A stretch of 64,000 nucleotides of DNA from Eledone cirrhosa (GCA_964016885.1 OZ024740.1:412052001-412116000); one strand, 5' to 3'. Shown: positions 7,459-48,416, counted from the stretch's first letter. The notes: a model not told the origin generated them from the letters alone. Program-made: numbers and translations.

Positions 7459-8227
7459 TTCTGTCTCCGAAAATTTACCGGGAAGTAAATGAATAAAATG
7501 ATCTCTATTAAGATCTCTACGTAATCGGTGAGAAAACAAGTGTTCGATTATATTATAAACCTTGCCCTATATCTCTACTCACACTTTACCTGTTCTTCCT
7601 AAAAAAGAAGCATCATTTATACTAATCTACTCCGTGAATTATTGGAACATGTAACCGACGCAAAGTTTCAACATCTGGAATATTGTATCACAGAATTCTA
7701 TTAAATACGTCGAGAAAAAGACGTGGAAGCTTTACTTTCTCTATTACCTGTATAATCATTCCACAAGTTCGTTTTACCAACAGAAAGTTAAGACCCCGTT
7801 ATCTTCTTACACCACATACACATACATACACACATATATACATATAGACGCACACACAGAAATACACACACATACACACACAAATACATCCACAAGCGCA
7901 GGCACGCATAGACACACACACAGACATGGGCATGCATGACCACGCACATGCATACATGTACACACACATACATATATATATATAAATACATATATATGAA
8001 TATATATATATATATAAATGTATATGTGTGTGTATGTGTGTGTGTATATATATATATATATATATATATATATATATATATATATATATATATATATATA
8101 TGTAGGAGGTGAGTTTTATTGTAGTATAATAAAGCAATGCAAATATCGGATAAGAAGAACTCTACAGTTTGTAGGACTGGAGTATACATAATATATAAGG
8201 TCAAAAGATGGTTAAATGAGTTCCATG

Positions 8228-8298
8228 TATTTTATTATGCGCATTTCAAAAACAAATATCATCATGCAATAACATTTGTGTTTTCATCAGATAAAATA
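8228..8298 (-). ncRNA. Type I hammerhead ribozyme (PLE type)
   Basis: Reverse complement of the 11154-11224 ribozyme. Confidence 0.85.
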
Positions 8299-9399
8299 GG
8301 AAGACATGATATGAAGGTTAAAAAACACTTGTGGATAGTGCAGTTTTAAATCAGCATATGAAAAGTAGTTTTAGATTGATGTGTGATATTGGGGAAAAAC
8401 CAATTTGTTGGGGGGGGGGAAAGAGGGGGAGATGAGAGTAAAAAGTGGAGGGGGAGGAGTATAATGAGGAAGGATGAGATAGGAGGAGAGATGGGTGATA
8501 GAGAGAGAGAGATAGCTTTTATAACTGAGAAAAAATATATTGTTTTACATAGAGAGGTTGAAAAACCGTTGGAAGATAATGTATAAATTAAAAGAATTTG
8601 AAAATTAACGAAGAGAAAAAAAAAATAATGTAAAGTTAAGGTTTGTATATTGAAGGGTTTAATAATATGTACGATGGAAAGAAAATGTTAATGTGTATTA
8701 AGAATAATATTTAAGGGTTTAATAATATGTGCGATGGAAAGAAAATGTTGATATGTATTATTAAAAAAAAAAAAAAAAAGTAATGTAAGTATATTGTGAG
8801 ATGAGCATGAATAAGTTAGATGAAAGGGAGAAAAAAATAATGAATAGAGGATGAATAATCTAACGTCAAAAAGTGTTTATGTTTACGAAGGATTTGTTTA
8901 AGGTGATATAAAGTAAGAATATAATGTATTGTGTAATAATTGTTTCTATGTTAGGCACAGTGAGAAAAGGTACAGATTAGGGGTTAGAAATTAAAAGAAA
9001 AAGAAAAGAAAAGGAAAAGGAAGAAATTGAAGTGATAAATAGGAGTGATATAGAATGAGTAACAAGTATTATATAATGTATAATAAATAACTTTGAAATA
9101 AGGTAGAAATATGGGTATATTTTTAAAGAAGTATATATATATATGTGTGTGCCTTTGAGAAAAGGATTCTGAATTGATAAAGTTTAGGATATTAGCTGTA
9201 TACTTTATGGAAAGTTCTGTGGAATTTATGCAAGCAGATAGAAAACAAGTCAGTGCGTCTATTTATTATAGAATCTAAATTAAAGTTATTGGAATGATCA
9301 TGATTAATGGTTAGATATAAAATTAACATAATGTTAATTTTAGAAGATCTTACAGTAGAATAATTAATCATGATCATTCCAATAACTTTAATAAAAGAC

Positions 9400-10250
9400 C
9401 TAGATACAAAAACATAATCTGGTATAATGCTCCTTTCTCCATCTCTATTAATAATAATATTCCTAAATTATTCTTTAGTGCCTTAAATAAATGCTTCCCT
9501 CCCTCACATATCTATAGTAAAATATTTAACAAACACACTATAACATTTTCCTATTCGACATCCTCCAACATTTCCAACATTATCTCTAAACACAACAATA
9601 AATTACTAAATACTAAATCTCTTCCTTCCAACACTGAATATCATAATAATAGTAATAGTACTCCCGACGTCATTGTAAACTCTAGGCTAATTTTTGCAAA
9701 CCCAAATACAACGTCAAACACAACTTCGCTAAATGTTCTTAATCCCATTCTAAATCAAGAAACTATTATTTCTATCGCAAATAACTTCTCCAATCCAATT
9801 CCTTCTATAGATAACACTAGGTCACACGTTAATAATCTCTCTAATCGCAATTGCAATTGCCCTGCTCAAAATAAATGTCCTCTCAACAACCATTGTCTTG
9901 ATCTACGAATGTAAAGTTATAACTGACACCAATTCCTTCACCTATTTTGGCTCCACTTCCACCTCCTTTAAAGCTCGTCTTTATAATCATCATTCGTCTT
10001 TTAAATACCAACTTAAAAGAACTAACACGGCTCTCTCAGAACTCATATGATCCTTGAAAGACAAAAATATTAAATATAACATCTCTTGGAAAAATGTTTC
10101 CTCTGCTTCTTCAAGACTTGCAATCTCTGTCTAAATGAAAAATTTCCCATTATTTCTAATTTAGATTCTATAATAAATAGACGCACTGACTTGTTTTCTC
10201 TCTGCTTGCATAAATTCCACAGAACTTTCCATAAAGTATACAGCTAATAT
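9400..10250 (+). pseudogene. PLE linker + GIY-YIG endonuclease remnant
   Basis: Reads KNIIWYNAPFS, KHTITFSYSTSSNISNIISKHNNKLL, RNCNCPAQNKCPLNNHCL, IYECKV..FTYFGSTSTSFKARLYNHHSSFK..TALSELI*SLKDKNIKYNISW, CNLCLNEK and INRRTDLFSLCLH, with stops and frameshifts. Confidence 0.88.
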
Positions 10251-43528: not shown

Positions 43529-43579
43529 GTAATAAACGAAGCTAAATTTTAATCATTTGAGTTTTATTTAACATTATTT

Positions 43580-46500
43580 TATATATATATATATATATAT
43601 AATATATATATATATATATATATATATATATATATATATATATATATATATATATATATATATATAATATATATATATTTATATAATATATACATATATA
43701 ATATAATATATATAATATAATATATATATATATAAATAATATAATATATATAATATAATATATATATAATATATATATATATATATAATATATATATATA
43801 TAATATATGTATATATAATATATATATATATAATATATATATATAATATATATATATAATATATATATGTATAATATATATAATATATATATATTATATA
43901 TATATATATATAATATATAAATAATATATATATATAATATATATATATAAATATATATATATAATATATGTATATATAATATATATTTATATAATATATA
44001 TATATATATATATATATATATATATATTAAATATATATATATAATATATATATATAATATATATATATAATATATATATATAATATATATATATATATAT
44101 AATATATATATATATAATATATATATATATATATATATAATATATATATGTATAATATATATAATATATATATTATATATATATATATATAATATATAAA
44201 TAATATATATATATAATATATATATATAATATATATAATATAATATATATAATATATATATAATATATATATAGAATATATATGTATATATATATATTGT
44301 ATATATATATATATATATATATATATATATATATATATATATATATAATATATATATATATAATATATATATATATATATATATATATATATATAATATA
44401 TATATAATATATATATATATAATATATATATATATATAATATATATATATAATATATATATACATATAATATATATATATTTAATATATATATATATAAT
44501 TATATATATATATAATATATATATATAATATATATATATATTATATATGTATATATATATATTGTATATATAATATATATATAAATATATATATATATAT
44601 ATATATATATATATATATATATAGTATATATATATATTATATTATATATACATATATATATATATATATAATATATATATATATATATATATATATATAT
44701 AATATATATATATATACTATATATATAATATATATATATATAATATATATATATATATAAATAATATATATAATATATATATATATATATATATATATAT
44801 ATATATAATATATATAATATATATATATAATATATAATATTAATATATATATATTATATATATATATAATATATATATATATATATAATATTATATATAT
44901 TATAATATATTTATTATATATATATGTATATATATATAGTATATATATATATTATATATATATATTATATATATATATTATTATATATATATATATTATA
45001 TATATATATATTATATATATATATATATATATATGTTATATATATATAATTATATATATATATATTATATATATATAAATAATATATATATATATAATAT
45101 ATATATAATATATATATATAATATATATATATATAACATATATATATAATATATATATATAATATATATATATAATATATATATAAATATATATAATATA
45201 TATATAATATATATATTAATATATATATATATATATATATATATATATATATATATATATATATATATATAATATATATTATATATATATATAATATATT
45301 ATATATTATATATATATATAATATAATATATATATATATATATATATATATTATATTAATATATATATATATAATATATATATAATATATATATATAATA
45401 TATATATATATATAATATATATATATATAATAATATATAATATTATATATAATATATATATATATAATATATATAATATATATAATATATATATATATTA
45501 TAAATATAATATATATATATAATATATATAATATATAATATATATATAATATATATATATATATATATATATATATATATATATATATATATATATATAT
45601 ATATAATATATATATATATAATATATATATATACATATATAATATATATATATATAATATATATATATATACATATATAATATATATATATAATATATAT
45701 ATATATAATATATATATATATATATAATATATATATACTTATTTATATATATAATATATATATATATATATATAAGATATATATATAATGTATATATATA
45801 TAATATATATATATATATAATATATATATATAATATATATATTAATATATATATATATAATATATATATTTATAATATATATATATATAATATAATATAT
45901 ATATATAATATATATATATAATATATATATATATAATATACATATATAAATAATATATATATATATATTATATATATAATATATATATATACATATTATA
46001 TATGTATATTATATAATATATATATATACATATTATATATGTATATTATATATACAATATATATATATATATATATATATATATATATATATTATATATA
46101 TATATTATATATATATTATATTATATTATATATATATATATATTATATATATATCTTATATATATATTATATATATATATATATATAAATAGTATATATA
46201 TATATTATATATATATATATATATTATATATATATATATTATATATATATATTATATATATATATTATATTATATAATATATATATATATAATATATATA
46301 TATAATATATATATATATAATATATATATATACATATAATATATATATATTTAATATATATATATAATATATATATATATATATAATATATATATATAAT
46401 ATATATATAATATATATATATATAATATATATATATATATATATATATATATATACATATATATAATATATATATAATATATATATATATAATATATATA

Positions 46501-48286
46501 TATAATATATATATAAATATAATATATACATATATATTATTTATATATAATATATATATATATAATATATATATATATATATATATACATATATATTATA
46601 TATATATAATATATATATATATTATATATATATGTATATATATATATTAGATATATATATTATATATATATATTAAATATATATATATATAATATATATA
46701 TATATATAATATATATATATATATATATATTATATATATATATATATATATATATATATATATATATATATAATATATATATTATATATATATATATATA
46801 TTATATATATATATATATATTATATATATATATATATATATATATTATATATATATTATATATATATTATATATATATATTATATATATTATATATATAT
46901 ATATATATATATAATATATATATATATATATATATTTATATTATATATATATTATATTATATATATATATATATATATATATTATATATATATTATATAT
47001 ATATATATATATATATAAATATATATAATATATATATTATATATATATATATTATATATATATATTATATATATATATTATATATATATAATATATATAT
47101 ATAATATATATATATAATATATATATAATATATATATATAATATATATATAATATATATATATAATATATATATATATTATATATATATATATTATATAT
47201 ATATTATATATATATTATATATATAATATATATATATATATATATTATATATATATATATATATTATATATATATATTATATATATATATATTATATATA
47301 TATATTTTATATATATATATATATATATTATATATATATATTATATATATATTATATATATATATATTATATATATTATATATATATATATATATATATA
47401 TATAATATATATATATATATATATATATATATATATATATATATATATAATATATATATAATATATATATATAATATATATATATAATATATATATATAA
47501 TATATATATATAATATATATATATATAATATATATATTAAATATATATATATATATATATATATATAATATATATATAATATATATATATATATATATAA
47601 TATATATATAATATATATATATATAATATATATATATATATATATATATATATATTTATAATATATATATATATATATAATATATATATAATATATATAT
47701 ATATATATATTATATATATATATATATATATATAATATATATAATATATATATATATATAATATATATATATAATATATATATATAATATATATATATAT
47801 ATAAAATATATATATATAATATATATATATATAATATATATATATAATATATATATATCTATAATATATATATATATAATATATAATATATATATAATAT
47901 ATATATAATATATATATATATAATATATATATATATATATAATATATATATATAATATATATATATATATATAATATATGTATATAATATTTATATATAT
48001 ATAATATATATATATAATATATATATATATATAATATATATATATAATATATATATATATATATATATAATATATATATATATAATATATATATATATAT
48101 ATATATATATAATATATATATATATAATATATATATATAATATATTTATATATATATATATATATATATATATATATATATATATATAATATATATATAA
48201 TATATATATATATATATATAATATATATATATAATATATATATATATATATAATATATATATATAATATATATATATATAATATAT
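43580..48286. repeat. ~4.7 kb degenerate (TA)n/(TATAA)n low-complexity tract
   Basis: Almost exclusively A/T. Confidence 0.95.
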
Positions 48287-48416
48287 GGAATGTTATATTT
48301 AAATTGTTGGGTTACACTAGTAAATATTTATAACTGATATAAAAGCACTCGACAAATATTTGGAGTATATTTACAATATTAAATAAATGGAAACTATATT
48401 TATAAAACCATATTTA

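Follow-up and report, generated by a model that had tools for sequence, protein, structure and literature searches.

A duplicated bulged hairpin marks the 3' ends of Hydra-clade Penelope-like elements

The window, which is the whole stretch of DNA analysed here, comprises 64,000 nucleotides of the Eledone cirrhosa genome (GCA_964016885.1 OZ024740.1:412052001-412116000). It has a GC content of 28.5%, is rich in (TA)n and fold-back insertions, and contains 200 N; its junctions rest on the assembly. It is strewn with decayed Penelope-like elements (PLEs) that sit in (TA)n and, judged from their sequence, belong to the Hydra clade. The sequence-only reading of the window had proposed that unrelated, ribozyme-bearing families share a hairpin of the form YACTC..GAGTRCT at the start of a one-sided 3' tail, and that this hairpin is a conserved cis-signal for recognition or priming. 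The hairpin is a small bulged structure with a covarying upper stem. It occurs twice in the leader of intact Hydra elements, and element ends are coupled to the 5' arm of either copy.

Two broken open reading frame (ORF) remnants are present in the window, the second with an inverted partner. Both translate into a CxCx5C linker ahead of a C-terminal GIY-YIG endonuclease (EN), and the translation of 30700-31050 contains CxxC and CxH around conserved E and N. The RWK and DKT motifs are missing from the window copies, which are 5'-truncated. With a 195-aa window fragment as query, full-length proteins were obtained (44% identity over 98 aa to P0002), and one full-length protein retrieved 2233 relatives, of which 120 were listed and 103 aligned. 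Among the matches listed, C562, C564 and C570 are invariant in the 103 aligned homologues, and C661, C664, E667, N682, C691 and H693 are invariant in homologue alignment A1, which contains no invariant CCHH set inside EN. The full-length homologues carry R37 W38 and D114 K115, the RWK and DKT motifs of PLE/TERT-like reverse transcriptases (RTs). The model of the Hydra protein has a predicted local distance difference test score (pLDDT) of 93, and its best structural match is TERT (E 3.5e-9). Sequence matching gave no solved structure and no Pfam family at E<=0.01, and the viral contigs searched held no relatives. The text of Craig et al. 2021 (PMC8557442) describes the Hydra clade of C-terminal EN+ PLEs by the CxCx5C linker, CxxC/CxH around EN, a hammerhead in the pseudo-long terminal repeat (pLTR), a (TA)n target and inverted copies with a one-sided tail. 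Family A is the only one of the eight window families with an ORF remnant of its own; the others are assigned to the Hydra clade by hammerhead remnants, hairpin and target. The family A ORF also has an N-rich insert between thumb and linker (9600-9900), which recalls N-rich inserts mentioned for rotifer Penelope elements in the text of PMC3846280.

Both halves of the hammerhead core are found in families A and H and near-cores in C, D and F; B and G retain the GAAAC half alone, and in E no core is recognisable where one would be expected. The family A motif is on the sense strand, ~64 nt past the hammerhead GAAA. The hammerheads at 8214-8290, 48401-48472 and ~27250-27345 have unusually long stem II regions (~45-70 nt), longer than in the Hydra hammerheads of File S2 of Craig 2021 (PMC8557442), the part of that source compared here, and the Rfam covariance models miss the hammerheads of the window families. 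More hammerhead-like cores lie at 3959-4320, 41426-41538 and 4654-4686, with a 33-bp end common to 4285-4317 and 4632-4664; they apparently form another small element family. Over the 110 nt that precede the hairpin, the eight sites are unrelated, in line with the sequence-only reading: 27 of 28 pairwise comparisons did not rise above shuffles, and the remaining one reached 1/200.

All eight hairpin strings quoted in the sequence-only reading are found on the strands and at the positions assigned to them, except that 17050-17164 begins one base before the quoted string. All eight window tails terminate in (TA)n. A tail of ~60-110 nt on one arm only had been described; (TA)n begins 66-107 nt after the first stem base, but 154 nt after it at the long-loop site 17050, and neither 17050 nor 30301 has an adjacent inverted arm. 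Wherever a partner exists, the shorter arm does end just before the motif, 2-11 nt ahead of the stem. The tail-less arms end at 11264 (-4 relative to the stem), 18132 (-9), 27672 (-3), 32368 (-11) and 32697 (-2), and those at 42239, 42356, 42520 and 42573 all end at -5; by eye, the arms ending at ~50370 and 38617 stop at about -5 and -4.

The motif is more frequent in the window than composition predicts. The descriptor consists of the 4-bp stem, the first upper pair, a U-led 2-nt bulge and N-C-Y, and was partly shaped by eye on the window sites. With loops of <=26 nt it gives 8 matches on both strands of the 47.6-kb microsatellite-stripped window, compared with a mean of 0.45 (maximum 3) in 200 dinucleotide shuffles; with loops up to 110 nt it gives 9 matches compared with 1.6 (maximum 8). 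The 8 matches in the unstripped window are 7 cited sites and a further family G copy at 30575. A covariance model built from 68 hairpins, all from outside the window, serves as an independent check on the descriptor. At E<=5 it gives 10 window matches, among them 30575 and all but one of the eight cited sites; five of the matches (30575 and four cited sites) reach E<=0.02. The sites 27179, 30301 and 8155 are weak (E 0.36-4.6), and the model does not find 17050. A known Rfam family is unsupported: 10 of the 92 Hydra loci described below gave no match at E<=1, and the 150 listed of 205 window matches are all under the gathering score, mostly microRNA models on TA repeats or fold-backs.

The structure reads RCUC-Y…R-UN-GAGY followed by RCU, that is, a 4-bp lower stem, a 2-nt bulge on the 3' side and a covarying upper stem. 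It was characterized on 88 distinct hairpins from 50 families, for which the lower stem and 3' anchor were the sole selection criteria. The pair adjoining the bulge, which played no part in the selection, is Watson-Crick in 83 of 87 hairpins (56 C-G, 27 U-A). This pairing appears only when two 3' bases are skipped, and eleven other registers give at most 29/88. The bulge is UU in 58 hairpins, UC in 17, UA in 10 and other in 3. The second upper pair is paired in 57/83 and the third in 40/53, and each of the first three upper pairs beats all 10,000 permutations. In a pair count over 68 rows, 95% of cells are paired with 62 double changes, a result reached in 0 of 500 shuffles, and slid controls are much lower; RNAalifold alone, on the variable-loop alignment, recovers the 4-bp lower stem and nothing more. 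The base before the stem is not consistently paired with the following R, so that the 3' RCU is an unpaired sequence feature. The lower stem of the proposed YACTC..GAGTRCT form, ACUC/GAGU, prevails in the window (6 of 8 families, often followed by GCU) but is found in none of the 88 metagenome hairpins. Of these, 86 have GCUC/GAGC and 2 have GCAC/GUGC as lower stem, and GCUC/GAGC-ACU is the commonest form outside the window; site 17050 departs from the bulge pattern. On sequence grounds, the window form is a lineage-wide compensatory shift across unrelated families. Natural variants include a UCUC/GAGA lower stem, U or C for the 3' R, and an extra bulged base (L035 49-160, L029, L068, L077).

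In an independent sample chosen by protein alone, the motif is present twice between the hammerhead and the ATG of intact elements. The sample contains 92 Hydra loci, 78 from metagenomes (from the best 80 of 517 confirmed stretches) and 14 on contigs of bacterial genome bins, and makes 74 families at 80% ORF identity; L002, L004, L006 and L015 are examples with an intact ORF. The latter 14 (L079-L092) are Hydra elements with (TA)n flanks inside the bins and most likely lie on host-animal contigs. With the strict descriptor and motif-independent denominators, hairpin 1 occurs 41-70 nt past the hammerhead GAAAC in 33 of the 41 families with enough sequence, and hairpin 2 occurs 19-53 nt ahead of the ATG in 27 of 33; several misses are variants regained by the covariance model (L019/L031, L060, L086). 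No match lies in 71.9 kb of stop-free ORF, and none on the antisense strand of the ORFs. A first ORF control had given 15 matches, which were traced to loci with rearrangements, where the match extends across a leader. The spacing between the two hairpins is 56-83 nt (31 families), near the window tails of 66-107 nt, and the interiors of paired hairpins 1 and 2 are identical in 0 of 31. The element described as a 3'-tail hairpin is not a 3'-end element as such; its two copies belong to the leader, and the tail is read-through as far as the second of them.

By eye, the motif is also visible in 4 of the 6 new Hydra consensi in the supplement of PMC8557442: coral Amil-2, sea cucumber Ajap-1 (two copies before the ATG) and Ajap-2, and copepod Crog in a mismatched AG-bulge form. 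It was not seen by eye in the published Amil-1 and Obim sequences, whose 3' ends stop soon after the hammerhead. For Naiad/Chlamys, six exact 9-mers gave 4 scattered non-Hydra matches, none in hairpin context by eye, in text where line breaks may hide matches. The low GC content, the fold-backs, the 200 N and the assembly-dependent junctions of the window raise the question whether the likeness is due to chance or to faulty assembly of AT-rich repeats, but the same positions are occupied in 50 families of independent assemblies and the motif stands in the coral and sea cucumber consensi that PMC8557442 provides, so that such an origin is hardly credible.

Element ends are coupled to both hairpins. 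Ungapped end mapping was confounded by subfamily indels, and gapped mapping of hammerhead-bearing copies onto family references was used. It gave 38 end rows, or 31 after removal of 5 contig ends and 2 alignment artefacts (L040, L055). Fourteen of the 31 3' ends lie at -6..0 of hairpin 1 and ten at -5..-1 of hairpin 2, and 4 of the 5 excluded contig ends likewise fall within 3 nt of a hairpin. As background, such intervals take in only 22% of the TA sites and 31% of the TAT/ATA sites of the region; with each family-site event counted once, 20 of 27 ends fall within them (p=7e-6). The positions of 21 such ends have a standard deviation of 1.7 nt relative to the 5' arm and 4.9 nt relative to the 3' arm, and upstream TA peaks at -6/-8 from the 5' arm. 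Because 24 of 31 ends lie 0-6 nt before hairpin 1 or 2, the optional tail corresponds to the inter-hairpin interval. Every motif in the window is the hairpin 1 of a decayed, tailed copy; as expected, such copies lack hairpin 2. Covariation and end mapping together support the earlier proposal of a conserved cis-signal tied to element ends. Two further types of copy were observed. Some begin inside the hairpin with the 3' arm only (window 17905-17966, L021, L071), as if cDNA had stalled or switched template. In L075 (981-3380) and L017 (~2950-5510), near unit-length copies flanked by TA both start (5') and end (3') immediately ahead of one and the same hairpin, which is compatible with a circular or tandem template.

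The position of the hairpins could instead reflect expression. They might be a TATA plus initiator-like promoter, or an operator for translation or autoregulation, with ends nearby through TA microhomology alone. The 3' arm can be read as a Y-R step, as at many start sites, and hairpin 2 is close to the ATG. The stretch between the hairpins is also slightly depleted of ATG (9 vs 14.2, p=0.08 with hairpins excluded), and the text of PMC3846280 proposes a TATA..Inr-like (initiator-like) pair for rotifer pLTRs. However, TA and the ends track the 5' arm and not the initiator-like R, which argues against TATA-initiator spacing, and TATAWW occurs at promoter spacing in only 18 of 82, so that the promoter-spacing reading is unsupported. 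A promoter also does not need upper-stem covariation, and the majority of TA sites in the region do not serve as ends. We regard expression as the cause of the end pattern as very unlikely; the hairpins could still have a second role in translation.

We consider it probable that the hairpin is an RNA handle of the RT-endonuclease and that cDNA starts at the UA patch just 5' of it on a read-through or circular template. The template would be a read-through transcript, tandem or circular, in which the 3' untranslated region and hammerhead continue into the leader of the next unit. The RT-endonuclease protein would sit on hairpin 1 or hairpin 2 and the (TA)n target would be nicked. The 3' end of the target would then pair with the UA-rich patch 6-8 nt 5' of the bound hairpin, where reverse transcription would begin. 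A start ahead of hairpin 1 would give a short end, and a start ahead of hairpin 2 a tailed end whose tail holds hairpin 1 and spans the inter-hairpin interval. The main argument for RNA is that inserted DNA lacks the hairpin that defines its end and is often flanked by microsatellite, as would suit a template-borne signal. From this pattern we infer that the protein binds the hairpin, that the action is on RNA and that priming uses microhomology. A precedent comes from Poseidon PAc of Anolis, in which RT starts at two internal sites bounding the tail and RNA 3' of them is required (PMC11167929).

Several observations weigh against this model. Seven of the 31 3' ends lie outside the hairpin intervals, the 21 ends of the spread test had been picked as near a hairpin, and local alignment extends too far into TA, so that every end position is an upper bound. 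Seven window hairpins fold only weakly, at -3 to -8 kcal/mol; the minimum free energy structure lacks the bulge in two window hairpins, and the stem is missed in family B. The families are related, which inflates the shuffle tests, so that shuffle counts are not probabilities. In the upper stem, G-U and A-C counts are 4:4, 5:2 and 5:2, and wobble therefore cannot name the folding strand. Finally, 5' junctions are also found near the hairpins, at -11 (L075) and -2 (L090) from hairpin 1 and at -14 (L069) and -12 (L013) from hairpin 2. A model of DNA cutting predicts 5' junctions at the same spots, which keeps a DNA-level explanation alive.

In that explanation the hairpin acts as single-stranded or extruded DNA, and the GIY-YIG endonuclease cuts the upstream TA patch as a mini-target, resolving a tandem or circular intermediate into short and tailed ends. 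It draws on the four loci with 5' junctions 2-14 nt ahead of hairpins and on the missing wobble asymmetry that would point to RNA. The text of Craig 2021 ascribes the tail to EN-mediated resolution (PMC8557442), and earlier work, as cited in Frangieh 2024, found the Penelope tail to be required for EN cleavage of plasmid DNA (PMC11167929). A duplex dyad site is unsupported, as the one-sided 2-nt bulge and the interiors of 6-26 nt (38 in window family F) misfit it. The motif is also strictly on the hammerhead strand, the 3' flank is often (TA)n rather than element DNA, and PAc ends coincide with in vitro RT start sites (PMC11167929). We judge DNA-level resolution unlikely. The sequence-only reading had named RT or endonuclease recognition or priming; sequence alone does not separate RT from endonuclease, and the better fit is with the RNA/RT reading. 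Hairpins that directed RNA 3'-end processing, with a cut or trim just 5' of a protein-bound stem and RT beginning at the true 3' end, would likewise produce two clusters of ends tied to the 5' arm. We think this highly improbable: PAc initiates internally and extra 3' sequence left its product unchanged (PMC11167929), and no nuclease has been identified.

A more specific form of the RNA handle is offered only tentatively. The duplicated hairpin may be a TAR-like arginine-sandwich element with a U.A-U triple, serving as a ruler for the telomerase-related RT, which would dock through a conserved arginine-rich segment; cDNA would then start a fixed few bases 5' of whichever copy is docked. At the level of secondary structure, the base before the bulge is in a purine-pyrimidine pair in 83/87, the first bulge base is U in 86/88, and the second pair is A-U in 86/88, the last of these partly favoured by the search anchor. 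The Hydra protein has near-invariant arginines in its RxRW and RxR-IIW segments, with R35, R37, R485 and R487 as candidates among the matches listed. We know of no counterpart of the conserved 3' RCU in TAR or 7SK.

The features of the window are collected in Table 1. Nested insertions are found at 27700-32370, where family D arms enclose the endonuclease-bearing fold-back 28919-31396, which in turn encloses family E and family G pieces. The palindromic family G units at 42242-42687 are three perfect 112-bp units in tandem with (TA)n between them. The family G fold-back centre is at the apparent hammerhead stem II, and the same holds for copies near 30602-30723 and 17735-17792, a hint that cDNA primes itself at this stem. 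Fold-backs with no detected hairpin are at 39866-40859, 24807-25376, 14499-14790, 17444-18353, 35250-35472 and 50626-52803.

Table 1. Hairpins, hammerheads, fold-backs and ORF remnants in the window
Feature	Position	Strand	Remarks
Hairpin copy of family G, first upper pair mutated	3827..3853	-	
Hairpin 1, family A	8156..8183	-	ACUC/GAGU, bulge UA; tail reaches (TA)n at ~8100
Family A fold-back insertion	8199..11253	.	Arms 8199-9294 and 10144-11253, 95% identical; tail-less arm stops 4 nt before hairpin position
Hammerhead core upstream of family A hairpin	8214..8290	-	Mirrored at 11162-11238 (+) in tail-less arm, and at 18035-18111 (+)
Broken Hydra ORF C-terminus	9290..10150	+	R-rich..IIWYN segment, CxCx5C linker, GIY-YIG remnant; stops and frameshifts
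Atypical hairpin, family B	17051..17162	-	ACUC/GAGU, ~105-nt interior; bulge pattern absent; missed by covariance model; tail-less relative 38565-38617 (+)
Family A tail starting inside hairpin (3' arm only)	17905..17966	-	Joined to inverted arm
Hairpin 1, family C	27180..27207	-	Fold-back 27224-27659; tail-less arm stops at -3
Hairpin 1, family D	27747..27770	-	GCUC/GAGC; partner arm 32132-32368 (+) stops at -11
Broken Hydra thumb-linker-endonuclease remnant	29200..30170	-	Inverted partner 30725-31396 (+) with CxxC..E and N..CxH
Hairpin 1, family E	30302..30329	+	No partner arm; no clear hammerhead core
Hairpin 1, extra family G copy beyond the eight cited sites	30575..30601	-	Found by descriptor and covariance model
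Hairpin 1, family F	33003..33051	+	GCUC/GAGC, 38-nt interior; fold-back 32701-32996; tail-less arm stops at -2
Decayed hairpin copy of family G	35577..35603	-	Coordinates approximate, by eye
Hairpin 1, family G	42696..42722	+	Three palindromic units 42242-42687 upstream; their tail-less arms stop at -5
Hairpin 1, family H	48344..48366	-	Hammerhead 48401-48472 (-); partner arm 50177-50361, hammerhead 50271-50342 (+)

Both the structure of the motif and its use as a marker of element ends have good support; its biochemical role is inferred. The motif bears on how PLE RTs, the closest relatives of telomerase, choose their RNA and start site. The one-sided tail had lacked a sequence-level cause, for which the hairpin duplication offers a testable explanation. 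A motif of ~30 nt that occurs in at least 50 families across phyla and is tied to both end types allows a direct mutational test and provides a minimal RNA for structure determination. It also allows Hydra elements to be annotated without recourse to protein, together with their non-autonomous remnants and true boundaries. Should the proposed mechanism be true, RNA-templated insertion into microsatellites would have a compact cis tag in the hairpin. If the arginine sandwich is also true, it would be the first defined PLE RNA recognition element, with the tail arising from signal duplication and a convergent TAR/7SK-type fold in a retrotransposon. The clade, the hammerheads, the fold-back insertions and the optional tail were already known, as was two-site internal initiation in another clade. 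The motif, its duplication and its link to the two ends are undescribed in the literature covered, which includes the text of PMC8557442, PMC4209133 and PMC3846280 ('hairpin' 0 times in each) and leaves aside figure-only supplements, Repbase notes and subscription papers.

The window elements share with the Hydra clade of Craig et al. 2021 the CxCx5C linker, CxxC/CxH, the hammerhead in the pLTR, the (TA)n target and the one-sided tail, but the tail is 30-40 bp in the text of that paper and 56-107 nt here (PMC8557442). The passages of it covered here describe no motif between hammerhead and ATG. The closest functional likeness is to Poseidon PAc, where the two internal RT starts also bound the tail and the required RNA 3' of the starts lies downstream of the hammerhead (PMC11167929). 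PAc belongs to a different clade, however; its initiation takes place in a single AC-rich stem-loop within the ORF, and a conserved or duplicated motif for binding was not defined there (PMC11167929). The Hydra elements have two copies, which are non-coding, show covariation and are each associated with a separate cluster of ends. With the arginine sandwich of human immunodeficiency virus TAR and of 7SK the hairpin shares a paired purine and a U-led pyrimidine-rich bulge followed by G-C and A-U, the triples given in the text of PMC6189040 being U23.A27-U38 for TAR and, at the 2-nt UU bulge of 7SK, U40.A43-U66. The likeness is one of secondary structure: unlike in TAR as described there, the loop closes the opposite end of the helix, and the A-U pair is swapped in 2/88 of the hairpins. 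It is convergence, not homology. The 3' stem-loops of long and short interspersed elements and of R2, the epsilon signal of hepatitis B virus and the template-boundary stems of telomerase are all small cis-acting RNAs that position an RT on its template, and they are known as single-copy signals. The Hydra signal differs from these in being present twice and in lying 3' of an internal start; it is left uncopied at the end that it defines, and it belongs to the leader of the next unit.

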